From: Spirochaetia bacterium
Lineage (GTDB): Bacteria > Spirochaetota > Spirochaetia > UBA9216
Reading direction: 5' to 3'
Assembly (NCBI GenBank): GCA_965140585.1
Contig: OZ223266.1
Coordinates: 1-64,000, forward strand
Length of the DNA stretch: 64,000 bases
Each line of letters begins with the position of its first letter. The first letter of the stretch is position 1. Shown here piece by piece: positions 16,083 to 33,810 of this stretch. The notes beneath the pieces are model-generated. The model ran no database searches. It worked only from the letters and a program-made list of their open reading frames with translations, and was not told the DNA's origin. Both the position numbers and the translations under genes were made by a program.

Positions 16083-16086
16083 TAGT

Positions 16087-18060: not shown

Positions 18061-18094
18061 AACTTTCCGGTGAAAAGGGGGGTAAGCGGGTTTT

Positions 18095-18324: not shown

Positions 18325-18760
18325 ATGACATCTAAAGAAAGAGTATTAACTGCTTATGAACACAAGGAGGCTGACAGGGTCCCGATGTTGTAAAGAAGAT
18401 TGGTCATGACCTTTTCACTACAGAGCTTGATCAGGCAACCGGCCACTGGAGCAAGTTTACCTACGAGAAATCGTGATGGAAGTAGATTCCTACGAGAAGC
18501 AGGATGGTGAGAAGGGCGAGGATTTTTTTCATATGGCCAAGATTCCCAATCTCATTCCTTCAGGCAGAAGCTGGTATACAGAGTCGACGGTGTGCTAATT
18601 GCAGTAGGCTGGGCTATGAACTCAGGACCGATAATGCCTCCGTATTATATAGAAGAGTTTATGGTTCTCCAGGTAAATACGATTGCAGATTACTGCAGAT
18701 TCAGTGATGGCAATGGTAGAGACTGTTGAGAAATACGGAATTTATCCGATAGATTGTTAG
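18325..18760 (+). pseudogene. Relic of UroD/MtaA-family protein; both termini kept, middle largely deleted
   Basis: AGGAG RBS followed by MTSKERVLTAYEHKEADRVPM; C-terminus AMVETVEKYGIYPIDC*; only about 435 bp in total. Confidence 0.7.
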
Positions 18761-18787
18761 AGAATAAGAGATAGTAAGTTATGAGAA

Positions 18788-18818
18788 CGGTAAGGATTTA
18801 GTCTTTACAGTTTTTTTT
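18788..18818 (+). terminator. Intrinsic terminator of the relic operon
   Basis: GTAAGGA-tttag-TCTTTAC hairpin followed by T8. Confidence 0.5.
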
Positions 18819-18827
18819 GCCGCAATT

Positions 18828-18862
18828 AAAAAAAGGACCGGACAATGATTGTCCAGCCCCTT
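18828..18862 (-). terminator. Intrinsic terminator of fucI
   Basis: Minus strand reads GGGCTGGACAA-tca-TTGTCCGGTCC-TTTTTTT. Confidence 0.8.
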
Positions 18863-18911
18863 ACAGATTCAATTGAATCAAGTCGTCCTAATAATAAAAT
18901 CCTTATGGAGT

Positions 18912-20717
18912 TTATTTATATATTGGTCCGAAGTTTCCGCAGGCTCTGTAGTCTGCACCTTCTTTGTCCATACCGAATGAATTCCATACTGCAGGCCTGA
19001 AGATTCTTTCATCTTCAACGTTATGCATGCATACAGGAATCCTCAGCATAGAACATAGTGTTATCAGTTTATCGCCGATATGTCCATAGCTGATGGCGCC
19101 ATGGTTTGCACCCCAATTTGCCATTACAGAATATACATCCTTGAAAGCCCCGTCCTTTCCTGTCACTCTTGGCGCGAACCAGGTGGTCGGCCATGTAGGA
19201 TTGGTTCTGACATCGAGAGTCTTATGTGCTTTCTCGGGTATTGTTACAGTCCAGCCTTCAGCAAGTTGAAGAACAGGTCCAAGCCCCTTGATTATGTTCA
19301 CGCGGCTCATAGTAATAGGCATATCACCCTTCGTGAGGAAGTCGGTTGAATAGCCGCCGCCTCTGAAGTATCCACCGTCGCCGACACAGAACTCGGTTGC
19401 TTCAAGACATTTTTTAACTTCATCTTCTGTAATATCCCAGAAAGGTTTCATTACGGGCTTGCCGTCTTTATCCGTCTGTTCACCTGTTCCGTCAAGGGTT
19501 GTCGAGCCGGAGTTTATCAGGTGGATAAGACCGTCAGCAGCCTTACCTTCAGGTTTCCATCCTGTTACTCTTTCAATTGCTTCCGGGCTCCAGTAAGTTC
19601 TTACATCGCTGAAGATTTGAGCTGTATCTGTGAGAAGGTGGCCGAAAAGCATGGGGACAGCATTAAGTGCATCGTTTTCAGTGGCAAAAACGAAGGCTTC
19701 ACGTATTCCGTTCCAGTCAAAGGATGTATTGAGCATGGTTTCCATGAAGTCGCCGTTGGGGTAGTGGTCGGTCCATGATCTCTGGCCCTGAAATCCGCCT
19801 GCGATTGCATTGCGGCCCATGGCCTCTTCTCCATATCCCATCTCTGCAAGCTTGGGATTGCCTACCATAAGGTCCCGGCCTATCATAACCATCTTGGTTA
19901 CATATTCCCAATCGCTCTGGCGCTGTTCGGGTGAGCGTCTCCACTCAGGAGGATTAACAGTGTCTTCCTGCTCTTTGCAGTTCTTTTTTACCCATTCAAG
20001 AGCTATTTTAAACTCATCTTTGTCGTAGATATCCTCTTCGACACGGCGGGCAACTTCACTCATGTCAACTACTTCGGTCCGCATTCCAAGATATTCCTGG
20101 AAAAAATCCTGGTCTACAATTGATCCTGCAATACCCATAGAGGTTCCGCCGATTGAAAGGTATGATTTACCCTTCATGTAGGCTACAGCCAGTCCGGCCT
20201 TTGAGAATGAGAGCAGTTTGCCTTTAACGTCTTCAGGAATTGATGTATCGTCAGAGTCCTGAACATCACGTCCGTAAATACCGAATGCGGGCAGGCCCTT
20301 CTGGGCATAACCGGCAAGAGCTGCGGCAAGATAAACCGCACCCGGGCGTTCTGTACCGTTAAATCCCCATACAGCTTTCGGCAGGTTGGGATCGGCATCC
20401 ATTACCTCGGTTCCATAGCACCAGCAGGGGGTTACTGTAAGGGAAACACCTACACCTTCTCTGGCGAATTTCTCAGCGCACTGAGCCGCTTCTGCAACTC
20501 CGCCTATTGTTGTATCGGAAATAACGCATTCAACAGGAAGTCCGTTGGGATGCCTGAGATTTTCAGTAATTAATTTTGCGGCTGATGCAGCCATGTTCAT
20601 AGTCTGGACTTCGAGTGATTCGCGTACACCCCTCATCCTTCCGTCAATAACAGGACGTATGCCGATTTTAGGCATTTCGCCTTTTAGTCTGTTTTTGAAT
20701 TCCTTTCCTGTACTCAT
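18912..20717 (-). CDS. fucI: L-fucose isomerase
   Basis: Motifs [47 protein letters not shown] and NWGANHG; GGAG RBS before the ATG at 20717. Confidence 0.97.
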
Positions 20718-20753
20718 CAGAAAAAACTCCTTAAACTGTCGATAATCAAGAGT

Positions 20754-20777
20754 ATAAATGTAATCGATTACATTTAT
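20754..20777. promoter_or_regulatory. LacI-type operator upstream of fucI
   Basis: Perfect 24-bp palindrome ATAAATGTAATCGATTACATTTAT with central CG, lying between the LacI gene and fucI. Confidence 0.85.
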
Positions 20778-20851
20778 TATCCACCGATTTAAAATAAAAA
20801 TCAAGAAAAATCTGTCTGCAAATTTAAGTATTATTCAGGATGGGTTGAAAT

Positions 20852-21838
20852 TCAATGCTCAATGAGGCTGGTTTCAAGTCTTATTATCGAGCAGCATTCT
20901 TCTGTTTCCTTCTTTATCCGACTCATAAGCAGATTCGCTGCTGTCTTTCCCATCTCAAGCATAGGCTGCGAAACCGTTACGCTTGAAAATCCGAGTATTG
21001 AAGAGAGTGCCATATCATCAAAACCGGCGATCCGGATATCACAGGGGAGATCGTTTTTGTGTTCGAACAGAAATTTTGCCGCTCCTACATGAAGAAAGTA
21101 GTTGGCTATAAATACATTTTCAGGCGGGGAAGGGGCTTCCATCAGCTCTTTCATGAATCTGTAGCCGGATTCTATGTGAACATCTCCGAACTTGATAATT
21201 TCAGGCTCAGGTTTAATTCCGTGGGCATCAAGGGCCTGCTGAAAGCCTTCATACCGTTCACGAAAGTTTGAGAGATCAAGGCTCCCGCCGATAAACCCGA
21301 AGCGCCTGCAGCCGTCTGCTATCAGTTTTTCTACTGCCGAAAACGCTCCGCTTATGTTATCAGCCAGTACCGCGTCACTCGAGAAATCCTCTACCAGTCT
21401 GTCGACAAGTACAACCGGGGTTCCTGTTCTGCTTAAAAGATTGAAATGGTTTCCTTTGGAACCGACCGGAATGATAATCACACCATCTACACACTGCTCT
21501 ATAAGAAGTTCAATTCGGTCTTTCTCGTCATCTGTATTTTCATTTGCATTGCAGAGAATTACGCCGTAGCCGTAGGCCCGAAGCTCATCTTCAACGCCCT
21601 TTGCCACAGTCATAAAAAAGTCGTTTACAAGTTCCGGTACAAGCAGGCCTACAGTTCCTGTCCTGGAAGTTTTCAGGCTTCTTGCCGCACGGTTCATTCT
21701 GTAGCCTGTTTCCTTGATCGCTTTCAGGACTTTTTCCCTTGTGGACGGTTTTATACCGGGGTCGTTATTCAGGACTCTTGAGACCGTAGCTGTTGAAACA
21801 CCTGCATGAACTGCTACTTCTTTTACTGTGATGGCCAT
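20852..21838 (-). CDS. LacI family transcriptional regulator (likely fucose regulon)
   Basis: HTH TVKEVAVHAGVSTATVSRVLN; ARSLK hinge; sugar-binding domain. Confidence 0.93.
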   Translation of the reverse strand: MAITVKEVAVHAGVSTATVSRVLNNDPGIKPSTREKVLKAIKETGYRMNRAARSLKTSRTGTVGLLVPELVNDFFMTVAKGVEDELRAYGYGVILCNANENTDDEKDRIELLIEQCVDGVIIIPVGSKGNHFNLLSRTGTPVVLVDRLVEDFSSDAVLADNISGAFSAVEKLIADGCRRFGFIGGSLDLSNFRERYEGFQQALDAHGIKPEPEIIKFGDVHIESGYRFMKELMEAPSPPENVFIANYFLHVGAAKFLFEHKNDLPCDIRIAGFDDMALSSILGFSSVTVSQPMLEMGKTAANLLMSRIKKETEECCSIIRLETSLIEH

Positions 21839-21844
21839 GGCCCG

Positions 21845-21874
21845 AGTATAGCACTCATTTTTAAAAGTTGGCAA
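21845..21874 (-). promoter_or_regulatory. sigma70-type promoter predicted to give a leaderless LacI mRNA
   Basis: TTGCCA-18 bp-(TG)cTATACT followed by 6 nt and then ATG; no Shine-Dalgarno sequence. Confidence 0.6.
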
Positions 21875-21918
21875 GTTAATGAATACTTAAAATAGGCATC
21901 TTGTACAAGGATAGATAC

Positions 21919-21955
21919 TTGACATATTTGTTTAAAAGTTTCTTAATAAGGAAAC
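21919..21955 (+). promoter_or_regulatory. Promoter with imperfect dyad (ArsR/SmtB-like operator candidate)
   Basis: TTGACA at 21919 and the near-palindrome GTTTCTTAATAAGGAAAC at 21938-21955, over the -10 region. Confidence 0.45.
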
Positions 21956-21981
21956 AATGAAACATAAAAAGGAGTATCACA

Positions 21982-22359
21982 ATGTCATGCTGTTGCGGTG
22001 ATGATAAAAAGGTCAGGCTTATATATTCATGTTCAGGTGCAGCCAATACCGGGTATCTGGCTGATCAGGTTTTTAGAACGCTGAAGTCAGAAGGAGTTGC
22101 TGCCGGAACCTGTCTGGCTGCAGTCGGTGCGGATCTTTCAGGATTTCTGCTCTCTGCAAAAGAGTCAGACGGTAATTTTATTATGGACGGATGCAAGGTA
22201 GGGTGCGGAAAGAAAATATTTGAAAATAAAAACCTGCCCTATACACAGTTTGTGATGACTGATTACGGAGTGGAAAAAGGTAAAACAGAAATTACCGATG
22301 AAATTATTAAGCGTGTCAGCAGTGAGATTGGTGAAATAGTAGGGAAAACTGATGAATAA
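21982..22359 (+). CDS. DGC-domain putative zinc-binding protein
   Basis: Motifs MSCCCG, YSCSGAANTG..AD, CLA and MDGC.VGC. Confidence 0.85.
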   Translation: MSCCCGDDKKVRLIYSCSGAANTGYLADQVFRTLKSEGVAAGTCLAAVGADLSGFLLSAKESDGNFIMDGCKVGCGKKIFENKNLPYTQFVMTDYGVEKGKTEITDEIIKRVSSEIGEIVGKTDE

Positions 22360-23530
22360 GAAGAACTCAATGCTTATGATTCTCGGTCTTATGGCATTTA
22401 TGACTAACGGAGATAATTACGCAGCTGCGCCCCTATTGCTGAAAATATCCGAAGATTTGAATCTTACAGTCCAGCATGCCGCATACTCTGTAACTGCATA
22501 TATGCTATCGTTCGGACTTTTTACATTGATTTTCGGTCCGCTTTCCGACAGGTTCGGAAAAGTCCGGATTATCCGTATCGCAGCCTTCGGTACCGCCGTC
22601 TTCAGTATTCTGGGTGGGGTTGCATTTAATCTGCAGAGTTTGATGGTTTTCAGAGCATTCAATGGAGCTTTCGGAGCGGGAATATTCCCTGTAACAATGG
22701 CCCTGGTCGGTCAGTCTTTTAATGATAAGGAACGGCAGGGGGCACTTGGAAAGGTTATGGGAATGATGTTTCTCGGCGGAGCTACTGCTACAGCTATTGG
22801 CGGTGTTCTCTCATATTTCGGTTCATGGAGACTTGTGTATATCATCTATGGTGTCGGAGAGCTTGCGGCAGCAGTTGTAATTACCAGAATGCTTGAAAAG
22901 GACAGTGGAGTGGTAGATAGACTAAATTTTGTAACTGCCTATAAGACGCCGCTGTCTAACGCCAGGTTTATGCGGCTGGTTATTACAATTTTCTTTGTCG
23001 GCTTTGCAGTTTTTGGAAGTTTTACCTATTCAGGAAAGCTGCTCCAGCAGGCAACCGGATTATCTGTTCTTCAGGTAGGATTGATTTTATCCTGCTTCGG
23101 CGTCGGTACAGTCTTCGGCGGAAGAATTGCACCGAAAATGCGACAATTATTAAAACATGGTTTTCTTGCTGCCGCCGGAATTCTCGGTTTTGCGGGTCTG
23201 TACATATTATCCCGGTTTTCCGGTGTATTCATGTTATGTCTCGGGCTGTTCAGTTTCGGTCTTGCATTCATTTTTCTGCAGACCACGCTGGTTTCAACTG
23301 CACAGATGAAACTTCCCTCAATGCGCGGAACGGCAATGTCTCTGGCTTCCTTCAATATGTTTGTGGGAGGAGCTTTGGGGACAATGGTAAACGGCAGAAT
23401 TATGATAAATACCGCAATCAGTAATATATTCCTTTATGCTTCAGTCGTTATGCTGATAGTAGGCCTTGCCTCAGCTTTTTTTCTGGTAGGTTTTGAAACC
23501 CGAAGAAAACAATCAGAAGTTTCCGGTTAA
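22352..23530 (+). CDS. MFS transporter (DHA1-like)
   Basis: About 12 TM segments; motif A GPLSDRFGK; FGSWR. Confidence 0.88.
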   Translation: MNKKNSMLMILGLMAFMTNGDNYAAAPLLLKISEDLNLTVQHAAYSVTAYMLSFGLFTLIFGPLSDRFGKVRIIRIAAFGTAVFSILGGVAFNLQSLMVFRAFNGAFGAGIFPVTMALVGQSFNDKERQGALGKVMGMMFLGGATATAIGGVLSYFGSWRLVYIIYGVGELAAAVVITRMLEKDSGVVDRLNFVTAYKTPLSNARFMRLVITIFFVGFAVFGSFTYSGKLLQQATGLSVLQVGLILSCFGVGTVFGGRIAPKMRQLLKHGFLAAAGILGFAGLYILSRFSGVFMLCLGLFSFGLAFIFLQTTLVSTAQMKLPSMRGTAMSLASFNMFVGGALGTMVNGRIMINTAISNIFLYASVVMLIVGLASAFFLVGFETRRKQSEVSG

Positions 23531-23693
23531 GCTCTATTGCATACAGGCATTAGCTGTCCTCTTCGGTCACTTGCAGCAGTACTGTAAATATCAGCAGTGT
23601 TCAGTTAAACCTCCTGTGCAAGATCTTCCTTGACGATTTGGTAGTTCACGCTGCTATAATGAAGGGGGCAGTTTTTAACAGGGGAGGTCTGAT

Positions 23694-24995
23694 ATGCTGC
23701 ATGATCCAAGCCACAGGCCGGAGATTCCGGTAGAAGAGGAAATTATTCTTGATAGAGATGAGATTGATGTTCTAAAAAGGCTTGGCAGCCGAATTGCAGA
23801 AATTGCCGATGACCCGGTTAATTCCCAAAGGGCACAACTTTGGACCCGGCTGAATGATCTGAAAAATCCCCGTCCTCTTGTCTGGATAAACGAGATTCCA
23901 TGGCATGAGATGAATGTCGATGATGAACTTACGCTGAAGACCAGGCATCCCTGGGCACAGGAGCTTGAAACAAGACTTCGAAGAACTATTTACCAGTGGA
24001 ATCACATGCCCGGAGACATGATAGTAAATCCCCGCATCGAATGCCCCCTGGTTATTCACAGTACCGACTTCGGAATTATCGAAAAAGCCGATGTAGCAAA
24101 AACCGATGAAGAAAATGATATCTATTCAAGGCATTTTGAAATCCAGATAAAAGACATGGATGACCTGCAGAAGATAAGAATGCCCGTCGTGACCCATTTT
24201 GAAAAAGCTACCCGGTTCAGTTTTGAGGCAATGACTCAAATCTTTGAGGGAATAATTCCGGTGAAAAAGACCGGCCAGAGCCATATCTGGTTTACTCCCT
24301 GGGATTATTTAATTCGCTGGTGGGGAGTTTCGGAGGCGATGATGGATCTGGCCATGAGGCCTGATATGGTTCACACCTTTGTTGATAGGATGGTTGATGC
24401 ATGGATGGCTGAACTGGATCAGTTTGTACAGCAGAACCTATTGTCCCTTGACTGCAATAATACCAGAATAGGCTCCGGCGGTTACGGTTATATAAGTGAT
24501 ATGCCGGGGGATGATTATGACCCCGCATACGTAATGCCGCATAATATGTGGGGCTGCTCGAATGCCCAGATATTCAGTGAAGTCTCCCCGTCCATGCACT
24601 GGGAGTTTGCAATTGAACATGATATGCGCTGGCTTAAACGCTGGAAGTACACCTACTACGGATGCTGTGAACCTCTTGACGGCAAGGCTGAAATACTGCG
24701 GCGTATTCCAAACCTCAGGAAGGTTTCTGTTTCACCCTGGTCTAATACTGAGCGGGCTGTAGAAAATTTCGGTGATCGATACGTAATGAGCCGGAAGCCC
24801 AATCCTGCAATTCTTGCCGAAAGCAGCTGGGAGCCGAAGCGGGCGGAAGCTGAGATCAGGGATTTTCTTGATAAAACCGAAGGAAAGTGCAATATTGAGC
24901 TTATTATGAAGGATATCTCAACGGTGAAATATCATCCTGAAAGGTTGTGGGACTGGGAGACTATAGCTTCCCGGGTTGTTCAGGACTACTGCTGA
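23694..24995 (+). CDS. UroD/MetE-fold (URO-D/CIMS-like) protein of unknown function
   Basis: Motifs EVSPSMHWEF, YYGCCEPLD, NLRKVSVSPW and SRKPNP; has its own promoter (TGcTATAAT near 23652) and a GGAGG RBS. Confidence 0.7.
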   Translation: MLHDPSHRPEIPVEEEIILDRDEIDVLKRLGSRIAEIADDPVNSQRAQLWTRLNDLKNPRPLVWINEIPWHEMNVDDELTLKTRHPWAQELETRLRRTIYQWNHMPGDMIVNPRIECPLVIHSTDFGIIEKADVAKTDEENDIYSRHFEIQIKDMDDLQKIRMPVVTHFEKATRFSFEAMTQIFEGIIPVKKTGQSHIWFTPWDYLIRWWGVSEAMMDLAMRPDMVHTFVDRMVDAWMAELDQFVQQNLLSLDCNNTRIGSGGYGYISDMPGDDYDPAYVMPHNMWGCSNAQIFSEVSPSMHWEFAIEHDMRWLKRWKYTYYGCCEPLDGKAEILRRIPNLRKVSVSPWSNTERAVENFGDRYVMSRKPNPAILAESSWEPKRAEAEIRDFLDKTEGKCNIELIMKDISTVKYHPERLWDWETIASRVVQDYC

Positions 24996-26017
24996 GAAAT
25001 ACTTCTGCAGGAGCCCCTTTCCACCAGGTGCTGCTGAACCTTGAGTCCGTGCTGATTGTTGGGAGTGTTCTCAATCCTGTTTATAAGCATCTGCACAATT
25101 ATCTTGCCCATATAAGCAGTGTCTATCTTCATAGTAGTGATTGGCGGAATGTAGGGCATGTTGTAATCAAGAACATCCCCGGGGGCGATAATCGATACAT
25201 CTTCAGGAATTGAAAGCGTAAGTTCTTTGAGTGCAAGAATTACGCGTAAAGCCAGATCATCATCAAGACAGAAAACAGCCGTGGGTTTCACCTTGTTTTC
25301 GGGGTTGAAAACAGGATAAAGATCCTTGCGCAGTTTATCCATATGGCCGGTTTCGAACTCGAAAATATACTCCCGCGGAAGTTCTATTCTGTTTACGTCC
25401 ATCGATTTTTTAAATCCGATAAAACGGTCGTTTGAAAGGGCCGGAAGATCAATTCGCTGAATTCCAACATAGGCGATTTTACGATGTCCGAGTCTTATCA
25501 GATGATTTCCTGCTTCATATGCTCCCTGAAAGTCATCGACGCATATTGAGTAGTATTTATCGTGAAACTCAGAATTCATCACTGTTATTACCATCATCCC
25601 GGCTGTTTCAAGACGGGCGAAAAGTTCGTCGTTTCCGAAGTGAAGCGAAATTACTGCTCCTGAGCCGGACGACTTTATTTTGTCAAACATCTGCTGAGGT
25701 GTTTCACGGTGATAAATTGGGATAAGAATCAGATTCAGTCCTACTGCTTTCAGGTCACTCTCAATAGATTCAATGATCGGTCTTATGAATTTGAATATAA
25801 AAGCCCATTCATAGTCTCCGTTAATCAGTACACAGACGTGGTCGAAGTCGGATATCCTGTTAATTTTTTCTTTACGCTTGTAGCCGAGCTTTTCCGCTGC
25901 TGCAAATACCTTGGCTCTCGTCTCATCTGATATTCTGCCTGTTTCTGAGAGAGCCATCGAGGCCGCTGTCAGGGACACTCCGGCTTTTTCTGCAACATCA
26001 CGCAATTTAGGTTTCAT
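24986..26017 (-). CDS. LacI family transcriptional regulator
   Basis: HTH KLRDVAEKAGVSLTAASMALS; LGHRKIAY and IPEDVSII motifs. Confidence 0.9.
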   Translation of the reverse strand: MKPKLRDVAEKAGVSLTAASMALSETGRISDETRAKVFAAAEKLGYKRKEKINRISDFDHVCVLINGDYEWAFIFKFIRPIIESIESDLKAVGLNLILIPIYHRETPQQMFDKIKSSGSGAVISLHFGNDELFARLETAGMMVITVMNSEFHDKYYSICVDDFQGAYEAGNHLIRLGHRKIAYVGIQRIDLPALSNDRFIGFKKSMDVNRIELPREYIFEFETGHMDKLRKDLYPVFNPENKVKPTAVFCLDDDLALRVILALKELTLSIPEDVSIIAPGDVLDYNMPYIPPITTMKIDTAYMGKIIVQMLINRIENTPNNQHGLKVQQHLVERGSCRSISQQ

Positions 26018-26099
26018 TTATTCATCCAGCAAATCAATTTAGCAGTATTTTATCATCCTTTGGGGTTCTGTCAATCTTTTTTAAAATAATTTTATCAAA

Positions 26100-26174
26100 A
26101 TTTTAGCAAGAATACGCCATAAATAGGCAAATATTTGATAAATAAGGCCTAAATTTACATATTCTTGCTAAAAT
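26100..26174. repeat. 15-bp perfect inverted repeat with 45-bp spacer in a divergent promoter region
   Basis: ATTTTAGCAAGAATA (26100-26114) and TATTCTTGCTAAAAT (26160-26174), flanked by divergent TTGACA -35 boxes at 26069-26074 (-) and 26231-26236 (+). Confidence 0.8.
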
Positions 26175-26281
26175 AAGGTAAAAACAAGATAAAAATATTA
26201 CTATATTGAATAAAATTTTAACAAAAAAACTTGACAGTCAAAAATTCCGTGTTAGGATAGGATTAATACGGAGACAGTGCT

Positions 26282-26602
26282 ATGAGATTCGGACAGGTTA
26301 TCGGCCTTAAAAAAGAAAATTACGAGAAGTATAAGCAGTATCATGCAAACGCATGGCCTGAGATAAACAGCAAAATAACTGAATGCAACATTAAGAACTA
26401 CACCATCTTTTTTAAAGATGAACTGCTTTTTGCGTATTTTGAATATGTCGGTGAAGATTTTGAAGCTGACATGCAAAAAATGGCGGATGATCCGAAGACC
26501 CAGGAATGGTGGGCAATAATGAAACCGCTGCAGAGCCCGCTTGAAACAAGAAAAGATGGCGAATGGTGGGCGTATATGGAGGAAATGTACCATCTTGACT
26601 GA
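26282..26602 (+). CDS. rhaM: L-rhamnose/L-fucose mutarotase (RhaM, DUF718 family)
   Basis: Motifs YKQYHANAWPEI, NIKNYTIF, LFAYFEY and TQEWW. Confidence 0.85.
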   Translation: MRFGQVIGLKKENYEKYKQYHANAWPEINSKITECNIKNYTIFFKDELLFAYFEYVGEDFEADMQKMADDPKTQEWWAIMKPLQSPLETRKDGEWWAYMEEMYHLD

Positions 26603-26632
26603 GGGTGCATTAAACAGAAAAGAGGGTTTGAT

Positions 26633-28138
26633 GTGAGTAGTGAGAATTTTGGAATAGCCCTTCAGATGAAGGGGGTCAGCAAGAGTTTTCCCGGAACGCT
26701 TGCTGTAGACAATGTTGATTTTGATGTCCGTGCCGGAGAGGTTCATGCCCTTATCGGTGAAAACGGAGCAGGAAAATCAACGCTTATGAAGATAATAGCC
26801 GGTTCTTTTAATGATTACACCGGCAGAATATTCATAGGCTCAAAAGAGACGACTCTGCATTCACCGGTGCAGTCTAAAAAGAACGGAATCGAAATGATTT
26901 ACCAGGAACTCAGTCTGGCATTGCCTCTGAGCATTGCAGAGAATGTCCTGGTAGGAAGACTTCCGAAAAAGGGAATCTTTCTTGATAAGGAAAAAATCTA
27001 TAAAGAGACCAAGCGCTGTTTAAAACAGGTCGGTCTTGACCACCTTGATCCTGATCTTGAAATCGAAGAGATAAGCCAGCACGAAAGTCAGCTTGTCGAG
27101 ATAGGCAAGGCGCTTGGAAACAATCCGTGTATCCTGGTAATGGATGAGCCTACATCAGCCCTTTCGCGTGAAGAGGTTGAAAGGCTTTTTGAAATTATCA
27201 AGAAATTGAAAAACCGCGGACTTGCCATTATCTATATTTCGCACCATCTACCCGAGATTTTTGAAGTGGCCGACAGAGTAACTGTCATGCGCGACGGTAA
27301 AAAGATTGATACCCGGGATATTGATAATGTAAGCAGTGAAGAGCTGGTTCAGATGATGGTCGGGCACTCTGTTAAGGAGTTCTACTCTCATGAGAGCCAT
27401 GCAACAGAGGAGGAACGGCTGAAGGTTGAGAACCTTTTCCGGTACGGTTTCTTCCATAATGTATCCTTTACAGCAAAGAAGGGTGAGATTCTCGGTATCT
27501 GCGGACTTTCAGGTGCTGGACGAAGCGAGATTGCAAGGGTCCTTGTAGGGCTTGATGACCGGCATGAAGGTCAGGTTTTTATTGACGGCAGGGAAATAAA
27601 CCCAAAAACGATGGCGAGGGCTCTTGAAGCGGGCATAACCTATCTTACCGAGAACCGCAAGACAGAAGGCCTCGCTTTAAGGCTTGATATCAAGGAGAAC
27701 ATCCTTGCAGGTATAGTGCCCAAGCTCACCAGGGCTGGAATCTATCATGAGAATGAAGGGCTGGATCGGATGAAGGAGCTGATAAAAGAACTGCTTATTT
27801 ATCCACCTGATTCATCAAGGATTACCGGCAACCTCTCAGGCGGAAATCAACAGAAGGTGCTTCTTGCCAAATGGATAGCCCTCGATCCGAAGGTCCTCAT
27901 TCTGGATGAGCCGACCCGCGGTGTTGATATCGGTGCAAAGATGACAATCCATGAGTCTATCGAAAAGCTGGCAGCCAACGGTACGACCGTACTGCTTATA
28001 TCATCAGACCTGCCTGAGCTTGTCTCTCTTTCAAACAGGGTATTGATCATGAGGCAGGGACATATCATTCACGAAATGGATCAGTCGGTTTGTACAGAGG
28101 AAAGCGTTCTCCTTGCGGCAAATGGTGAGGGAATATAA
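26633..28138 (+). CDS. Monosaccharide (CUT2) ABC transporter ATP-binding protein
   Basis: Two nucleotide-binding domains: GENGAGKSTL, DEPTS, LSGGNQQKV and DEPTRGVD. Confidence 0.95.
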   Translation: MSSENFGIALQMKGVSKSFPGTLAVDNVDFDVRAGEVHALIGENGAGKSTLMKIIAGSFNDYTGRIFIGSKETTLHSPVQSKKNGIEMIYQELSLALPLSIAENVLVGRLPKKGIFLDKEKIYKETKRCLKQVGLDHLDPDLEIEEISQHESQLVEIGKALGNNPCILVMDEPTSALSREEVERLFEIIKKLKNRGLAIIYISHHLPEIFEVADRVTVMRDGKKIDTRDIDNVSSEELVQMMVGHSVKEFYSHESHATEEERLKVENLFRYGFFHNVSFTAKKGEILGICGLSGAGRSEIARVLVGLDDRHEGQVFIDGREINPKTMARALEAGITYLTENRKTEGLALRLDIKENILAGIVPKLTRAGIYHENEGLDRMKELIKELLIYPPDSSRITGNLSGGNQQKVLLAKWIALDPKVLILDEPTRGVDIGAKMTIHESIEKLAANGTTVLLISSDLPELVSLSNRVLIMRQGHIIHEMDQSVCTEESVLLAANGEGI

Positions 28139-29199
28139 TGAGTGAGACACAGGTGATGGAAAAGGAAGAACAGAATGTAGCCCAGCCCGCAGACAGAAGG
28201 GCGACAAGTTACAGTATTATAGGTAAGGTTTTTCACGGAATCGGCATATATGCGGTTGCAGCGATGTTCCTGATTCTCGGAATCATTCTGCAGCTTCTGG
28301 GGGTCATCAACAACTTCATGACTCCGCAGAATATGCTCAACATTATTGATGCGGTTTCAATGCTTGGAATCGTAGCCGTCGGAATGGCTTTTATCACTTA
28401 TTCCGGCCACTACGCCGACCTGTCGGCTCCCACAACCATGGCGTTGACAGGTATTGTTGCCGTTCAAATGCTCCAGTTCGGTTTTATTTCTGCTCTGATT
28501 GCAGCCTTTGCAACCGGTATTGTGATAGGTCTTATAAATGCAATAGCAGTAGGTAAGTTCAAGGCAAACCCGATAATCTGGACCCTTGCCGTTAACTATG
28601 TAACCCTGGGGGTTATCAGGCTGGTATGGGTCAACAAGCAGATCTATCCGGACATGATTGCAAAGACCCAGCGTGCAAGTGAGCTGTTTGACAACATCTA
28701 CCGGCTGCGCTTCTTCAATAAGATAGCACTTCCTGTAGTGTTCCTTGTAATTCTTGTGATTGTAATGAACTTTATAATGAAGAAAACAAAGTACGGCCAG
28801 CAGCTTAAGATGACCGGAGCTTCAAGAAAGGCAGCAAAGTTTTCAGGTGTTAATGTTGAAAGGGTAATAGGACTAAGCTTTATTATCTGTGCGCTTACAG
28901 CTACACTCGGCGGGCTGACAATAACTTCGCTTTCCAGGGTAGGTGCCTACTACAACGGTGAAGGCTACGACTTCAAGGCTGTAACCGCAATAGTTATCGG
29001 AGGAATGACCCTTGCCGGCGGACGCGGTTCTATAATCGGAGTGCTCGGCGGCGTACTTATAATCGGACTTATGAACAATATCATGACACTGCTCGGTGTT
29101 GGGACTTTCTCTCAGGACATGATCCGCGGAGCGATATTCATAATCGTCGTTGGTATAAATGCTAAATCTCTGAGATCTCTGGGGCGTGACGATGCTTAA
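28138..29199 (+). CDS. Monosaccharide ABC transporter permease 1
   Basis: RbsC-type DLS and AIVIGGMTLAGGRGS motifs. Confidence 0.92.
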   Translation: MSETQVMEKEEQNVAQPADRRATSYSIIGKVFHGIGIYAVAAMFLILGIILQLLGVINNFMTPQNMLNIIDAVSMLGIVAVGMAFITYSGHYADLSAPTTMALTGIVAVQMLQFGFISALIAAFATGIVIGLINAIAVGKFKANPIIWTLAVNYVTLGVIRLVWVNKQIYPDMIAKTQRASELFDNIYRLRFFNKIALPVVFLVILVIVMNFIMKKTKYGQQLKMTGASRKAAKFSGVNVERVIGLSFIICALTATLGGLTITSLSRVGAYYNGEGYDFKAVTAIVIGGMTLAGGRGSIIGVLGGVLIIGLMNNIMTLLGVGTFSQDMIRGAIFIIVVGINAKSLRSLGRDDA

Positions 29200-30214
29200 A
29201 AACAAGAAGAATTCAATTTTGACAATAGTAGATAAAAACAGAATATACATTCTCTTCGGCCTGGTATTCATTATCATGGCTCTCTTTGCTCCGCGTTTTT
29301 TCAATGTGTTCAACCTGACCACGATAATGCGGACAATGTCGATGAATGCGGTTGTTGCAATAGGCTTTACTGTAATCCTTATTGTCGGTCAGCTTGATCT
29401 TTCAATTGGTACAATTGTTACATTCACCGGAATCCTGGGGCTTGGTCTCAAGGAATACCTGGGGTACGGCGGTTCAGTTCCTACGGCAATTATAGCCGGA
29501 GGTCTAATCGGACTGATAAACGGACTGCTTGTTTCAAAGGCTAAAATCAGTTCGTTTATTGTAACGCTTGGTATGATGACGGTTCTGCAGGGCGCAATTT
29601 ATACCTTTACAGGGGGAAACTCGGTTAGTCTTTCTACAGACGATGCCTTTGCAGTGTCTGACTGGTTGGCGAAAATGATTTTCCCGCTTGCGACACCCAG
29701 AGTTATTATAACTGTTTTACTTGTTGCCGGGGCATCAGTATTTATGCGGAAAACCAGAACAGGCCGTAACTTCTACATGGTCGGCGGAAACAGCCAGACT
29801 GCCTGGCTTGCCGGTATCGATACTGATAAATATACAATAGCAGCCTTTGTGATCTCCGGTGTTATGGCCGGTATAGGCGGAGTTCTTTTCGCAATGGAAA
29901 GCGCCGCCGCAACCCTGAATATGGGAACTTCTTCACTTATGTACGTTCTTTCCGCCACAATAATCGGAGGAACTTCAATGTCCGGCGGAAAAGGCGGAGT
30001 ATTTAAGACCTTCGTAGCAATCCTGATGCTAGATGTTCTTTATAATGGAATTATCCTTTTCGGTCTCGGAAATGAAGTAAAGATTTTTATAGCGGGAATT
30101 ATTCTTGCCTTCGTTGTTCTGTATGAAGCTTATGTTGCATACAAACATGAAAAAGTTATCGGCCAGCGTCCTGAACTGATGAAGGAACTGGCAGCGGTCC
30201 AAAATCAGGTTTAA
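29192..30214 (+). CDS. Monosaccharide ABC transporter permease 2
   Basis: GQLDLS and IIGGTSMSGGKG motifs; alternative GTG start at 29186. Confidence 0.92.
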   Translation: MLKNKKNSILTIVDKNRIYILFGLVFIIMALFAPRFFNVFNLTTIMRTMSMNAVVAIGFTVILIVGQLDLSIGTIVTFTGILGLGLKEYLGYGGSVPTAIIAGGLIGLINGLLVSKAKISSFIVTLGMMTVLQGAIYTFTGGNSVSLSTDDAFAVSDWLAKMIFPLATPRVIITVLLVAGASVFMRKTRTGRNFYMVGGNSQTAWLAGIDTDKYTIAAFVISGVMAGIGGVLFAMESAAATLNMGTSSLMYVLSATIIGGTSMSGGKGGVFKTFVAILMLDVLYNGIILFGLGNEVKIFIAGIILAFVVLYEAYVAYKHEKVIGQRPELMKELAAVQNQV

Positions 30215-30245
30215 TACCTTTTGGAATAACCATTAAAATTGGAGG

Positions 30246-31448
30246 ATGAAAATGAAAAGACTTTTAACTCTTTTCTGCGCCCTGCTTCTTGTTTTTACAG
30301 TTGCAGGAAACCTGACTGCCGGAGGACAGCAGGAAACAAAAACATCAGGCGGAAGCGGTAATCTTGAAGCTTCACTCGCTCTTGATAAGACAGCTGATGC
30401 GCTTACAGCAGCAGACGGCCAGCCGCTTATTAAAGTAGGCGGAGCAGTACGTGAAGTACCTGCCAGACCGGCTGATCCCGCAGCACTTCCTGAAACTGAT
30501 CCCCTGCACTGGTGGGATATGGAATTTGCCGGATGGGTTACTAACAAAACAAATATTCCTGAATCACCCAAAGACGGGGCAATTGGTAAAAAGGTAATAA
30601 TGATCGTTCACGGTGACCATCCCTGGACAACAGCATGTACAACCGGAGCTCAGAAGGTTGCCGATGCATACCAGATGGACATCAAAATACTGTCACCCAA
30701 CTGGGACCTCGCAGTACAGAACCAGATGATCGACCAGTCAATCAATGAAAGACCCGACATGATACTTCTTATTCCGCTTGATGCAAAAACAGCACCTCAG
30801 CAGGCGAGAAAAATCAATCAGGCCGGTGTTCCTTTAATTCTTTTCAATACACTTCCTGATGCAAAGGCAATGGATTACGCAATTGCATGGACAGGTCCGG
30901 ATGACTTCGGCCAGTTCAGAATCCTTTCAAAGCTCTGGGCAGATAAGCTCGGCAAGGAAGGCGGCGTTGCATACATTCAGCATGCACCGGGCGGATCTCC
31001 CTACTTCTCAAGATGCTGGGGCCCAATTTCCGAACTTTCACAGTACGCTCCCAATATCAAGGTTCTTGACAAGCAGGCTCCGGGATTTGAAGCAGACAAG
31101 ACTATGCAGCTTGTTTCCGACTGGCTCACAAGATTCGGCGATGATCTTAAAGGTATCTGTGCAGCTGATGACTCAGCCCAGGCTCTTGGAATCTTTGAAG
31201 CTCTCAAGAAAGCAGGACGTGAAGATGTTGTAGTAGTTGCAGCCGGTAACAGTAAGGTCGGTATGGACCTCGTTAAAGACGGAAAGCTCTATGCTATTAC
31301 ATATCAGACTGCAGAAGGCGACGGCGCCCTTGCTGTAAAAACAGCTGCCGACTGGTTCAACGGAAAGGACATTCCTCCTGTACGTTACCTGCCCCAGCAC
31401 ATGATCACAATTGACGACGTAGAAGAATTCTATCCTCCTCAGTGGTAG
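30246..31448 (+). CDS. Sugar ABC substrate-binding protein with long N-terminal extension
   Basis: Signal peptide followed by AGGQQE; type I periplasmic-binding domain starting around GKKVIMIVHGDHPW. Confidence 0.88.
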   Translation: MKMKRLLTLFCALLLVFTVAGNLTAGGQQETKTSGGSGNLEASLALDKTADALTAADGQPLIKVGGAVREVPARPADPAALPETDPLHWWDMEFAGWVTNKTNIPESPKDGAIGKKVIMIVHGDHPWTTACTTGAQKVADAYQMDIKILSPNWDLAVQNQMIDQSINERPDMILLIPLDAKTAPQQARKINQAGVPLILFNTLPDAKAMDYAIAWTGPDDFGQFRILSKLWADKLGKEGGVAYIQHAPGGSPYFSRCWGPISELSQYAPNIKVLDKQAPGFEADKTMQLVSDWLTRFGDDLKGICAADDSAQALGIFEALKKAGREDVVVVAAGNSKVGMDLVKDGKLYAITYQTAEGDGALAVKTAADWFNGKDIPPVRYLPQHMITIDDVEEFYPPQW

Positions 31449-31464
31449 GAGATACAAACTTTGG

Positions 31465-31494
31465 TGACTGCGGCGGTGCAATCCGCTGCGGTCA
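31465..31494 (+). other. Intergenic stem-loop after the SBP gene (mRNA stabiliser or partial terminator)
   Basis: TGACTGCGGCGG-tgcaat-CCGCTGCGGTCA, with no U-tract. Confidence 0.55.
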
Positions 31495-31521
31495 GCTTCA
31501 ATAAACGGACGGAGGTAAGCG

Positions 31522-32688
31522 GTGAAAAGAACGGATAACTGTATAAAAAAACTGAACAGGATAAATACCGCTCTGGCGCATAAGGAGCCCGACAGGGTGC
31601 CTTTAAGCGACTTCTTCTGGCTTACCTTTATTCAGCGGTGGCAGCAGGAGCTTGGGCTCCCGAAAGATGCCAGCCCCTATTACTATTATGATCTCGACTG
31701 GGTTGCAACAACCCCGAATATGGATCCCCATATAAAGGATTTCGAGATCATATCGGACAGCGACGGAGATATGGTAGTACGGACTGGTTTTGAAGCAGTG
31801 ATCCGGCATCGTGACGGAAGACAGATGCCGTATTTTGAGCATTTTGAAACCGATACCATCGATAAAATGATGGCCTTTGAATTTGATGATCCCTGGGATG
31901 AACGCAGATACTTCAGGGGCGGCGACAATCAGATTGCAGGTGTTTCCGAGGTTATCTCGAGAAACATCCCGCCCTGGATCGAAACTGTTAAATCATTTCA
32001 TCCCGACTTTCCGGTATACGGCTCGGTGTGTGAAGGGCATGAGGAAGGCTGGAGAATCATAGGCTCGGAGAATATGATGCTCTGGATGGGTCTCTACCCT
32101 GAGGAGCTGGGCAGGTTTATCAGCCGGGTAAATGAGTTTAGCCTTGAGCTGACAAAGGCCCAGATTAAGGCCGCCGACGGTATGCTTGACGGTATGGTTA
32201 TCTGGGGTGATGTTGCATATGTAAACGGAATGCTGTTTTCTCCTGATTTCTGGAGGCAGCATTTTAAACCGGGAGTGAAGGCAATAATTGATTACTGCCA
32301 TTCGAAGAACCTTCCGGTAATATACCACGGCTGCGGCAATGCTTCGGCCATCTACAGGGATTTTATAGAAATGGGGCTTGATGCATATAATCCGCTTGAG
32401 GCTAAATCGGGTCTGAATGTCATTGAGCTTAGAAAGCAGTACGGACATGATATGGGTTTCTGCGGAAACATCGACGCACTGAACTGGGGAACCGCTCCGC
32501 TTGATCAGCTTAAGGAGGAAGTTCTTACAAAGATGAATGCCGCCAAGGGAGGCGGATACATTGTTCAGTCTGACCATTCCGTACCTGGTAACGTAAGTGC
32601 CGAAAGGTATGAATTTGTAGTAGATCTGGTCCGGAAATACGGTGACTATCCTCTGAATCTAGGAGAGTACAATATTACGGAACTGTAA
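31522..32688 (+). CDS. Uroporphyrinogen decarboxylase/MtaA-CmuA family protein
   Basis: Motifs HKEPDRVP, WGDVAY..MLFSP, YHGCG, FCGNID and QSDHS; GTG start with GGAGG RBS. Confidence 0.88.
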   Translation: MKRTDNCIKKLNRINTALAHKEPDRVPLSDFFWLTFIQRWQQELGLPKDASPYYYYDLDWVATTPNMDPHIKDFEIISDSDGDMVVRTGFEAVIRHRDGRQMPYFEHFETDTIDKMMAFEFDDPWDERRYFRGGDNQIAGVSEVISRNIPPWIETVKSFHPDFPVYGSVCEGHEEGWRIIGSENMMLWMGLYPEELGRFISRVNEFSLELTKAQIKAADGMLDGMVIWGDVAYVNGMLFSPDFWRQHFKPGVKAIIDYCHSKNLPVIYHGCGNASAIYRDFIEMGLDAYNPLEAKSGLNVIELRKQYGHDMGFCGNIDALNWGTAPLDQLKEEVLTKMNAAKGGGYIVQSDHSVPGNVSAERYEFVVDLVRKYGDYPLNLGEYNITEL

Positions 32689-32698
32689 GGAGATTAGA

Positions 32699-33745
32699 AT
32701 GACGCATTTGGAACGATTTTATGCAACGATAGAGAGAAAGCCGGTTGATTATCCGGCGAGCTGGCTGGGCCTTCCGGTTCCTGATGCCCATCAATCGCTG
32801 CTGGAATATTTTAAAATAAGTGATATTGAAGAGATGACTAAGGCTGTTAATGATGATATTTATCCGGTTGAACTGCCTTACCATTCACCGGCAAGTAATG
32901 CGATTTATGCCGCCTTTGACTTTGCGAAGGACTTTGAAACCGACAGGGATGACGATTTTGAGCGGACGCTGACTGCGGCCGGGTTTTTTGAAGATTATTC
33001 CGATCCTTCAAAGATAGACGATTTTGACTGGCCGGTGCCCTCGAAATATATAGATCCTGCTGAATGTACTGCGGCAGTTGAAGCAGCACCTGCGGACAAG
33101 GCAGTGCTCGGGGTCGTGTGGTCTGCTCACTTTCAGGATGCCTGCGCAGCCTTCGGTATGGAAACAGCACTTATGAAGATGGTGCTTGAACCCGAGATGT
33201 TCAGGGTAGTGATAGACCGGATCCTTGATTTCTATCTTGAGGCCAATGAGATTTTCTACAAGGCTACAGAAGGCAAGCTGCATGCCGTACTTATAGGAAA
33301 CGATCTGGGTAGTCAGGAAAGTCTGATGCTGTCGGCTGATATGATTCGTGATTTTGTTCTGCCCGGTACAAGGAAACTGGTTGAGCAGGCTCACCGCTAC
33401 GGGCTTAAGGTTATTCACCATTCCTGCGGATCTATAAGACCGATTATTGATGATTTGATCGAATGCGGCGTAGATGCAGTACATCCTATTCAGGCCCTTG
33501 CAAAAGGAATGGACCCGTATTCGCTTAAGGATGAGTTCGGTGACAGGGTTTCATTCTGCGGCGGAGTAGATGCTCAGTATCTTCTGGTGAAAGGCAATGC
33601 TGATGATGTAGGCAAGAAGGTTGCAGAGCTCAAGACGCTGTTTCCAACAGGGCTTATAATATCACCCAGTCATGAAGCCATACTGCCGGATATTCCACCT
33701 GAAAATATTGATGCGCTTTTTAAGAGCATTAGGCAATCTTTGTAA
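32699..33745 (+). CDS. Uroporphyrinogen decarboxylase/MtaA-CmuA family protein
   Basis: Motifs MTHLERF, GNDLGSQ..LMLS, HHSCG, HPIQ, FCGGVD and SPSHE...PPENI. Confidence 0.88.
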   Translation: MTHLERFYATIERKPVDYPASWLGLPVPDAHQSLLEYFKISDIEEMTKAVNDDIYPVELPYHSPASNAIYAAFDFAKDFETDRDDDFERTLTAAGFFEDYSDPSKIDDFDWPVPSKYIDPAECTAAVEAAPADKAVLGVVWSAHFQDACAAFGMETALMKMVLEPEMFRVVIDRILDFYLEANEIFYKATEGKLHAVLIGNDLGSQESLMLSADMIRDFVLPGTRKLVEQAHRYGLKVIHHSCGSIRPIIDDLIECGVDAVHPIQALAKGMDPYSLKDEFGDRVSFCGGVDAQYLLVKGNADDVGKKVAELKTLFPTGLIISPSHEAILPDIPPENIDALFKSIRQSL

Positions 33746-33810
33746 AGAATTCAAATGAATTTCGGCTGATTCTTGTTAACTTGCATGCTTAACAGGTGTA
33801 TTATAGTTCT

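Follow-up and report, generated by a model that had tools for sequence, protein, structure and literature searches.

UroD-fold proteins of an L-fucose-type locus in a Spirochaetia bacterium as candidate corrinoid-dependent demethylases of O-methylated fucose

Introduction

Aryl methyl ether O-demethylases are three-component systems in which a substrate:corrinoid methyltransferase (MT I, here MT1), a corrinoid protein and a second methyltransferase (MT II, here MT2) work together with an activator. OdmB and VdmB, both MT I proteins of this kind, are members of the UroD superfamily (PMC10418091). The mlp gene clusters described by Kountz and Balskus combine MtaA-like proteins with a corrinoid protein and an activator; clusters of Type 1 encode two or three Mlps and have been tied to methyl-sulfur or methyl-selenide metabolism, and the terms sugar, carbohydrate, fucose and rhamnose are absent from the main text of that study (PMC10418091). 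Here, we describe a sugar locus of a Spirochaetia bacterium (assembly GCA_965140585.1) that encodes three proteins with UroD/MtaA-type motifs, designated P0001, P0002 and P0003, next to an L-fucose isomerase, a mutarotase and a sugar importer, and we argue that these proteins may remove methyl groups from O-methylated L-fucose. The locus lies within the first 64,000 nucleotides of contig OZ223266.1, hereafter called the window, which correspond to C3:1-64000 of a 4.85-Mb genome that is 98.5% complete.

Methyl ethers block the catabolism of sugars. The enzyme BT0984 of glycoside hydrolase family GH139 is described as an exo 2-O-methyl-alpha-L-fucosidase that acts on rhamnogalacturonan II (RG-II); the term 'demethyl' is absent from the main text of the paper concerned, which does not appear to address the fate of the released 2-O-methyl-fucose (PMC12282258). 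The 2-O-methyl-fucosidase activity is the sole one known for GH139, and no other glycosidase family is known to release this sugar. The only carbohydrate demethylase that surfaced in full-text searches is a cytochrome P450, which demethylates 6-O-methyl-D-galactose according to the parts of its description that were available (PMC6292453). No report linking UroD-fold proteins or corrinoids to the demethylation of fucose or other sugars was found in full-text searches. The P450 reportedly employs oxygen-dependent heme chemistry in an unrelated fold and releases formaldehyde. Like this enzyme, the proteins studied here would remove a methyl ether so that the sugar can be catabolised; unlike it, they would do so by an oxygen-independent transfer of the methyl group to cobalt.

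Results

UroD-fold proteins of the locus

The window was annotated by combining a listing of open reading frames (ORFs) with Pfam and NCBIfam profile searches. P0002 (31522..32688, + strand) and P0003 (32699..33745, + strand) matched the URO-D profile PF01208 with 72.1 and 80.1 bits, respectively, against a cut-off of 23.9. Both proteins thus belong to the UroD superfamily, as their profile scores exceed the gathering score and, in the case of P0002, the fold was also modelled. An AlphaFold2 model of P0002, built with 34 homologues, reached a pLDDT of 89.9, and a Foldseek search with this model retrieved UroD and MtaA structures equally well (TM 0.60-0.73), followed by MetE. The model also contains an extra beta-rich insert at residues 60-150. 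Neither protein scored as a member of the described subfamilies. The HemE equivalog TIGR01464 gave 22.9 bits for P0002 and 16 bits for P0003 (cut-off 302.95) and did not match P0001, while the MtaA/CmuA profile TIGR01463 gave 35.4 and 42.7 bits (cut-off 235.4). The only solved sequence relative was the MtaA of Methanosarcina mazei, with E-values of 7e-4 for P0002 and 3.8e-8 for P0003 against entry 4AY7. The resemblance to MtaA (4AY7/4AY8) therefore extends to the fold (TM 0.62-0.73) and the His-x-Cys of the zinc site, whereas the sequence identity is only about 16%, both scores fall about 200 bits short of the MtaA/CmuA cut-off and the third ligand Cys has been replaced. Moreover, MtaA methylates a thiol from methyl-cobamide, whereas the proteins of the locus would catalyse the reverse half-reaction, starting from an ether.

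The original prediction had pointed to SDH and PSH in the region where MtaA has its last zinc-binding Cys, and these were read directly in the translations: P0002 carries the motifs IYHGCG and QSDHS, and P0003 carries IHHSCG and SPSHE. Within the P0002 family, H269-x-C271 was invariant in all 34 sequences, as were E171, E174, D230, E293, K295, C314 and the pair D351-H352, the latter located in the region of the distal Cys of MtaA. The motif residues of P0003 are H240-x-C242 and S324-H325-E326, and a hand count in the alignment placed the distal Cys of 4AY7 opposite E326, right after H325. The complete zinc site of MtaA, which we take to consist of His-x-Cys and the distal Cys, is present in neither P0002 nor P0003 due to the replacement of the distal Cys. 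The putative metal site, if there is any, is altered relative to that of MtaA.

P0002 and P0003 share 31% identity over 180 residues. For phylogenetic analysis, 95 of 110 candidate UroD-like ORFs were drawn at random and eight rows were added; P0001 was left out as it was too divergent to align. The P0002-like (61 rows) and P0003-like (22 rows) proteins formed separate clades with 99% and 100% support, and a third clade of proteins of about 420 residues included two paralogues from the same genome. In total, the UroD-like proteins from sugar loci fell into at least four separate clades, and a long branch separated all of them from three MtaA-like proteins. This separation from MtaA-like proteins is also a difference between P0002 and P0003 and the mlp clusters of Type 1. 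Members of the P0002 family are 54-85% identical across phyla, those from Planctomycetota, Bacteroidota, Verrucomicrobiota, Acidobacteriota and Chloroflexota at 54-68%, and a protein search with P0002 yielded 5726 proteins at E <= 0.001 among 6823 candidates. The usual database label of these proteins is 'uroporphyrinogen decarboxylase family protein'. We consider P0002 a candidate O-methyl-fucose:corrinoid methyltransferase (MT1), and P0003 a candidate MT1 of a separate subfamily for another methyl ether.

P0001 (23694..24995, + strand; 433 residues) represents a distant UroD-like family that carries the motif YYGCCEP. It had no Pfam or NCBIfam match, even at an E-value of 10, and its profile-profile comparison with the P0002 family (hhalign) gave a probability of about 1%. 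Its AlphaFold2 model reached a pLDDT of 73, and the first 23 Foldseek matches were all UroD or MtaA structures (E 1.8e-5 to 1e-3; TM 0.42-0.55). In addition, ESM-Atlas clusters that were automatically named URO-D point to this fold. P0001 thus matches the UroD fold only weakly, and its fold is a prediction with moderate support. Relatives of P0001 are 59-95% identical across phyla, with 59-70% for more distant ones, and the P0001 profile detected 534 relatives in species-representative genomes. P0001 is a candidate third methyltransferase. Accordingly, the earlier claim of three intact UroD/MtaA-fold genes stood with respect to the motifs of all three proteins and the fold of P0002 and P0003, while for P0001 the fold was supported at this moderate level.

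Relatives of the three proteins adjoin fucose genes

The gene neighbourhoods were inspected for the best 80 of 146 loci of P0002 relatives in species-representative genomes (1.28 Mb), for 24 P0003 loci and for the best 80 of the 534 relatives of P0001. Neighbours were counted in a six-frame search with reference proteins, where GH29, GH95, GH95-like and GH139-like proteins were regarded as fucosidase families; for the two largest neighbour clusters, the family names of all 86 members were confirmed with Pfam. The expectation that the three families would lie beside deoxy-sugar genes was borne out when fucosidase, RhaT and RhaM genes were tracked across phyla: relatives of all three adjoin fucose genes in at least seven phyla. 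The carriers include the cultured bacteria Draconibacterium aestuarii Z1-6 (L018) and Vallitalea maricola AN17-2 (L134). Among the 80 P0002 loci, 68 contained a fucosidase, RhaT or RhaM gene. RhaM was present in 40, a RhaT-family permease in 28, a CUT2 ATPase in 15 and any fucosidase family in 43 loci, the latter comprising GH139-like proteins (20 loci), GH29 (6 and 12 loci with two reference proteins), GH95 (5 loci) and weakly matching GH95-like proteins (14 loci). Sulfatases were found in 13 loci, P0003-like genes in 16, P0001-like genes in 9 and FucI in none. The 24 P0003 loci included RhaM 11 times, a fucosidase family 9 times and RhaT 4 times, and the 80 P0001 loci contained P0002-like genes (25), RhaM (26), fucosidase families (27) and FucI (4). 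As a control, the surroundings of RACo genes in these genomes were searched at 14 loci (0.22 Mb), which contained no member of the fucosidase, RhaM or RhaT families.

In the window itself, the fucI gene (18912..20804, - strand) was identified by two NCBIfam equivalogs (NF008220, 1085 bits against a cut-off of 775, and a second one with 1069 bits against 850) and by matches to all three Fucose_iso Pfam domains. Since the equivalog match spans only residues 41-630, the true start of fucI is probably located downstream of the listed TTG. The mutarotase gene (26282..26602, + strand; PF05336, 110.6 bits) is the first gene of the importer operon. Compared with solved chains, its product scored 117.5 bits with 7BYU/7BYW, named 'L-fucose mutarotase', and 30.1 bits with the L-rhamnose mutarotase 6HHN, while its score of 48.7 bits with the L-rhamnose mutarotase equivalog TIGR02625 remained below the cut-off of 99.6. 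Judged by the PF05336 match and its closest solved relatives, this protein is a RhaM-family mutarotase of the L-fucose type. The rhamnose-type option that had been left for the locus was therefore not borne out. Because of the families of the neighbouring glycosidases and RhaM proteins, and because of the L-fucose-type mutarotase, the sugar of the locus is predicted to be of the L-fucose type and not of the rhamnose type. The binding protein of the importer had its best solved matches, at 92 bits, among proteins named CUT2.

GH139-like neighbours link the P0002 family to a methyl ether

The GH139 study includes the structures 9HYQ and 9HMB, and describes an inactive Verrucomicrobium homologue without the catalytic acid (PMC12282258). 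Neighbours of the P0002 relatives that carry a DUF5703_N domain matched PDB entry 9HYQ with 820 bits and 9HMB with 287 bits, and the full-length GH139-like neighbours scored 213-357 bits with the DUF5703_N profile. No paper mentioning DUF5703 was retrieved from the full-text literature. By hand count, 9HYQ carries W162, W403, Q411, N412, Q461, E472, W490, E561, N639, E641, W683, D723 and N729 at the published number minus one, and for this reason 9HYQ is taken to be BT0984. At the position of the catalytic acid, 9HMB has no residue. The idea that the 9HYQ-like neighbours correspond to the inactive Verrucomicrobium homologue was rejected, as 9HYQ keeps the BT0984 residues and 9HMB is the structure without the acid.

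In total, 24 ORFs had a GH139 reference as their best match, and 20 of these covered the relevant sites once two fragments, one ORF truncated at the end of its contig and one poor match had been set aside. The catalytic and -1 subsite residues Q411, N412, W403, E561, N639, E641, W683 and D723 (BT0984 numbering) were kept in all 20 complete ORFs, whereas the positive-subsite residues Q461, E472 and W490 were all kept in only two. The GH139-like neighbours thus appear to be active enzymes that share the sugar pocket of BT0984 and act on other glycans. Since Q461, E472 and W490 vary, these glycans probably differ from chain B of RG-II. This suggests that methyl-fucose caps exist on glycans other than RG-II, often beside sulfatases. 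BT0984 would supply the proposed substrate of P0002, and its close homologues are present in 20 of the 80 P0002 loci; GH139 itself is a glycosidase that lies outside the window and is absent from the genome studied here. As a separate observation, the three positive-subsite residues were replaced group-wise (Y/G/S, C/T/W or T/D/Y) in L013, L017, L018, L022, L027, L028 and other loci.

Corrinoid genes beside the relatives and in their genomes

In five of the 104 P0002 and P0003 loci, all from Bacteroidota, a corrinoid protein, the corrinoid activator RACo or a pterin-binding methyltransferase was encoded. A Paludibacter locus (L036) combines a UroD-like gene of the clade of about 420 residues with RhaT, RhaM, P0002-like, AraC, corrinoid protein and MtaA-like genes, and a Rikenellaceae locus (L061) contains P0002-like, GH29, GH95, GH95-like, corrinoid protein and pterin-binding methyltransferase genes. 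In two Bacteroidales loci, RACo accompanies a P0003-like gene: in L107, the P0003-like gene, RhaM and RACo are followed by rhamnosidase-like genes, and in L108, RACo lies two genes downstream of the P0003-like gene. The fifth locus, from a Bacteroidales metagenome-assembled genome (L115:68-16784), holds one string of genes for a corrinoid protein, AraC, a formate/nitrite transporter, FTHFS, a pterin-binding methyltransferase and MTHFR, which continues with GHL6-like, P0003-like UroD, RhaT, GH95, GH29, amidohydrolase_2 and sulfatase genes. This string reads as a full route from fucoside hydrolysis and uptake to transfer of the methyl group to tetrahydrofolate, its oxidation to formate and export, and it is the most complete version of the putative pathway among the loci examined.

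The co-occurrence of these genes was investigated in 50 of the 80 genomes that carry P0002 relatives, which were chosen by hand favouring longer contigs. RACo was present in 46 of them and a stand-alone corrinoid protein of the MtaC type, full length and scoring at least 240 bits, in 45, or in 47 if MetH-like matches are counted. For comparison, an even sample of 201 Bacteroidota genomes and a sample of 201 Planctomycetota genomes were searched. In the Bacteroidota sample, 5 genomes contained RACo, 21 a small corrinoid protein and 3 a P0002 orthologue, and all 3 carriers have both RACo and the corrinoid protein. In the Planctomycetota sample, RACo was detected in 77 genomes and P0002 orthologues in 8, of which 7 also have RACo.

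Weak matches to the P0002 profile of about 350 residues in RACo-negative Bacteroidota were considered as counter-examples and rejected, as they are 24-30% identical to P0003. Five of six such MtaA-like genes lie within a few kb of a small corrinoid protein gene on the same contig (G090, G190, G198, G214 and G226), and we read the genes of this length as parts of another, MtaA-like corrinoid system in genomes without RACo. A further gene row was noticed in a Verrucomicrobiota genome (L090; G048:C11), where a formate transporter, FTHFS, a corrinoid protein, RACo, DUF1638 and a homocysteine S-methyltransferase-like gene follow one another. This row may represent a split methionine-synthase-like or C1 module that shares its corrinoid protein.

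A corrinoid gene cluster elsewhere in the genome

The original prediction had proposed that the genome be searched for a corrinoid protein and its activator, and both were found outside the window, on contig C1. At C1:780957-787453, genes for a PocR-AraC regulator, a corrinoid protein, an MtaA-like protein, a CobW GTPase and RACo lie together. The corrinoid protein (C1:782509-783144) has 211 residues with B12-binding and B12-binding_2 domains and the sequence GDLHDIGKN, which conforms to the DxHxxG motif. The RACo protein (608 residues) displays Fer2, RACo_linker, Raco_middle and RACo_C_ter domains, and the MtaA-like protein (457 residues) scored 183 bits with URO-D and has a C-terminal extension. 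No substrate-specific methyltransferase of another family is encoded in this cluster. It resembles the mlp clusters, but contains a single Mlp-like gene.

As in three-component O-demethylases, there are UroD-superfamily MT1 candidates, with OdmB and VdmB set beside them by description, and a DxHxxG corrinoid protein with a RACo-type activator in the same genome; a pterin-binding MT2 is found in some relatives (L061 and L115), and this genome encodes an MtaA-like protein beside the C1 corrinoid protein but no stand-alone pterin-binding methyltransferase. The genes for MT1, corrinoid protein and MT2 are not clustered in the window as they are in three-component O-demethylase systems. Two differences from the aryl O-demethylases stand out: the predicted substrate is an aliphatic sugar methyl ether instead of a phenyl methyl ether, and the MT1 genes reside in sugar loci, mostly apart from those for the corrinoid protein, MT2 and activator.

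Two additional UroD-like genes were detected in sugar-related surroundings of the same genome. One (C9:193340-194605) is part of a second cassette with a CUT2 ABC importer and a LacI regulator, and the other (C4:459859-461130) adjoins genes for AraC, an FGGY kinase and a xylose-isomerase-like protein. Both encode proteins of about 420 residues with the motif HSCGS that belong to the third clade. The picture that these loci offer is one of a common corrinoid hub that would serve several methyltransferases encoded in sugar loci. Class II aldolase had eight matches elsewhere in the genome. The genome has one GH29 gene and no GH139 gene, and because of this the organism probably scavenges free sugar released by other microbes.

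A proposed route for O-methylated L-fucose

We consider it rather likely that O-methyl-L-fucose is demethylated by P0002, P0003 and probably P0001, acting as substrate:corrinoid methyltransferases. The original prediction, in which MtaA-like enzymes O-demethylate imported methylated deoxyhexoses, is in this way supported by the fucosidase, RhaT and RhaM neighbours, the GH139 link and the corrinoid components. From gene content, folds, motifs, neighbourhoods and co-occurrence we infer the substrate, the metal, the dependence on a corrinoid, the direction of transfer and the acceptor as follows. The CUT2 ABC system would import free O-methylated L-fucose, and the L-fucose-type mutarotase would provide the needed anomer. 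P0002, P0003 and probably P0001 would each serve as the MT1 for one methyl ether, which for P0002 is most likely that of 2-O-methyl-L-fucose. Their metal site, composed of His-x-Cys and a later His and presumably binding zinc by analogy to MtaA, would polarise the ether oxygen, and the Co(I) of the small MtaC-type corrinoid protein would accept the methyl group. Contig C1 would supply this corrinoid protein along with the MtaA-like methyltransferase, CobW and the ATP-dependent activator RACo. The methyl group would then be passed on, to tetrahydrofolate in those relatives that have a pterin-binding methyltransferase, and the released L-fucose would enter catabolism via FucI. Demethylation would be independent of oxygen and rely on a B12 carrier protein encoded elsewhere in the genome.

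Several observations weigh against this proposal. Corrinoid components are absent from the window, from 99 of the 104 P0002 and P0003 loci and from all 80 P0001 loci. Four of the 50 carrier genomes lack RACo and five lack the small corrinoid protein, all nine cases being metagenome-assembled genomes whose completeness was not reported. The Fisher tests of the association, calculated with the centre genomes left out, gave values of 3e-4 for Bacteroidota and 0.013 for Planctomycetota with shared ancestry uncorrected, and in Planctomycetota RACo is common regardless (38%). Furthermore, RACo stands alone in most carrier genomes. It could serve other corrinoid enzymes; in L090, for instance, a homocysteine S-methyltransferase-like gene accompanies it. 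An aerobic lifestyle is generally assumed for some of the groups to which carriers belong, among them the Pirellulales and Acidobacteriaceae. The genome studied here has no stand-alone pterin-binding methyltransferase, only FolP-like and MetH-like genes. With respect to the chemistry, cleavage of an aliphatic methyl ether is harder than that of an aryl ether, we know of no enzyme of the UroD fold that cleaves an aliphatic methyl ether, and the third zinc ligand of MtaA, a Cys, is replaced by a His-Glu or His-Ser region in the putative metal site.

Alternative explanations

The scarcity of corrinoid genes near the P0002, P0003 and P0001 relatives is what would be expected if the UroD-fold proteins were corrinoid-independent metal enzymes that act on a fucose-type sugar, for instance as a decarboxylase, as an isomerase or epimerase, or in a MetE-like methyl transfer to a thiol; the link to RACo and the corrinoid protein would then reflect no more than a shared lifestyle. 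This explanation, which we regard as unlikely, can also draw on the third zinc ligand that is unlike that of MtaA, on the fact that, after UroD and MtaA, the structure closest to the P0002 model is that of the corrinoid-free MetE, and on UroD itself being a cofactor-free decarboxylase. It leaves unaccounted for, however, that RACo occurs in 46 of 50 carriers compared with 5 of 201 Bacteroidota, and that the UroD-like genes share five Bacteroidota loci with genes for RACo, a corrinoid protein or a pterin-binding methyltransferase, to which one locus adds MTHFR, FTHFS and a formate channel. A gene set of this kind would serve no purpose unless a C1 unit were released.

If demethylation by way of a corrinoid is accepted, the sugar may still be a different one. 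The proteins could be corrinoid demethylases for O-methyl-rhamnose, 2-O-methyl-xylose, 6-O-methyl-galactose or methylated sugar acids, or their families could be split between these substrates. The family names RhaT and RhaM suggest rhamnose, a P0003-like gene and RACo share L107 with rhamnosidase-like genes, the paralogue at C4:459859 has genes for an FGGY kinase and a xylose-isomerase-like protein as neighbours, and there are at least four clades of sugar-locus UroD-like proteins. Nevertheless, the neighbouring glycosidases belong overwhelmingly to fucosidase families, the mutarotase is of the L-fucose type and fucI is present in the window, so that we find another sugar quite improbable. 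That the proteins are true uroporphyrinogen decarboxylases or MtaA-type methylcobamide:coenzyme M methyltransferases would agree with their Pfam URO-D match and usual database name. Yet the scores for TIGR01464 (22.9 and 16 versus 303 bits) and TIGR01463 (35 and 43 versus 235 bits), the lack of a heme gene in the window and the separation of their clades from MtaA-like proteins leave hardly any room for this possibility.

Demethylation of O-methylated L-fucose by a corrinoid system therefore remains our preferred interpretation, the novelty of which would, in our estimation, probably lie in new MT1 families and in a new substrate class for corrinoid methyltransferase systems. A broader claim, on which we are evenly divided, is that several polysaccharide-degrading phyla share an undescribed, oxygen-independent and B12-dependent cleavage of aliphatic sugar methyl ethers. 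At least four UroD-fold clades would each handle one methylated 6-deoxyhexose, with P0002 acting on the 2-O-methyl-L-fucose released by GH139; one corrinoid protein and one RACo per genome would serve them, and the methyl group would proceed via tetrahydrofolate to formate as in L115. Should the proposal hold true, it would explain the fate of 2-O-methyl-fucose after the action of GH139 on RG-II and extend the chemistry of this enzyme class from aryl to aliphatic ethers. It would also give anaerobes a route into the methylated sugars of pectin, algal glycans and dissolved organic matter, and provide names for several large, highly conserved families that are now labelled uroporphyrinogen decarboxylase family protein. 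Finally, it would tie the supply of vitamin B12 to glycan degradation in sediments, guts and the sea, and connect sugar breakdown to formate and C1 metabolism.

Gene order and other features of the window

The nearest public loci are from Spirochaetia metagenome-assembled genomes, with 96% protein identity. The clustering of fucI, a RhaM-family gene, a CUT2 importer and two LacI regulators was confirmed by the Pfam and NCBIfam searches, and so was the placement of two UroD-fold genes downstream of the importer in the same operon. The + strand carries a single string of genes for the mutarotase, an ABC ATPase with two ABC domains (26633-28138), two BPD_transp_2 permeases (28138-29199 and 29186-30214), a secreted Peripla_BP_4 binding protein with a visible signal peptide (30246-31448), P0002, P0003 and, as the last gene of the operon, an alpha/beta hydrolase (33796..34755; Hydrolase_4/Abhydrolase_1). 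The gaps measure 73 bases between the binding protein and P0002, 10 bases between P0002 and P0003 and 50 bases between P0003 and the hydrolase. No terminator-like site stands out between these four genes, where the scan found no more sites than in shuffles, and over the promoter and terminator scan as a whole the number of sites was likewise not above that of shuffled sequence. The tie of the hydrolase to the system is doubtful; its relatives occur in one of the 80 P0002 loci and one of the 24 P0003 loci, both of which belong to the genome of the nearest relative.

One LacI-family regulator (20852..21874, - strand; LacI and Peripla_BP_1/3 domains) adjoins fucI, and the second (24986..26017, - strand; LacI and Peripla_BP_3 domains) is divergent from the importer operon, a position that is conserved in the nearest Spirochaetia loci. 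A search for a common LacI operator palindrome in four intergenic regions yielded a single AT-rich palindrome only. In agreement with the earlier statement that the window lacks fuculokinase, aldolase, corrinoid protein, activator and heme genes, a Pfam scan of the 64 kb detected no FGGY kinase, class II aldolase, B12-binding, RACo or heme genes, and whole-genome searches with PF02310, PF14574 and PF00596 returned no match on C3:1-64000.

A relic of a further UroD-like gene had been proposed upstream of fucI. Here, a remnant of the 5' end of such a gene (18325..18387, + strand; 21 codons) showed 57% identity over 21 residues to the N-terminus of the paralogue C4:459859-461130 (E 1.5e-4 in a 2-kb search). 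The similarity to a paralogue thus supports the relic, but its extent is very thin: no in-frame similarity was found beyond the 21 residues, and the frame closes after 33 codons. Just upstream, at 17515-18108 (+ strand), a decayed LacI-family gene was noticed that is 24% identical over 187 residues to a LacI protein of the window (tblastn) and includes a 108-codon ORF with a partial Peripla_BP_3 domain. An earlier copy of the regulator-plus-enzyme cassette appears to have decayed at this place.

Between the LacI gene on the fucI side and P0001, genes for a DGC-domain protein (PF08859) and an MFS transporter are translationally coupled (21982-23530, + strand). This pair is probably not part of the system, because relatives were found in only one of the 80 P0002 loci. 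Further upstream, a chaperone-usher-like cluster (11993-16590, - strand) encodes a SCPU (spore coat protein U) domain protein, a PapD-like chaperone, a 167-residue ORF and a 794-residue protein without a Pfam match. On the other side of the locus, the region 36889-49720 encodes a TctCBA tripartite tricarboxylate transporter, an RraA-like aldolase, a metallo-beta-lactamase-fold protein, an amidohydrolase, a two-subunit 2-oxoacid:ferredoxin oxidoreductase and an aldehyde dehydrogenase, followed by a divergent sigma-54 PrpR-type activator, and looks like an organic-acid catabolic island.

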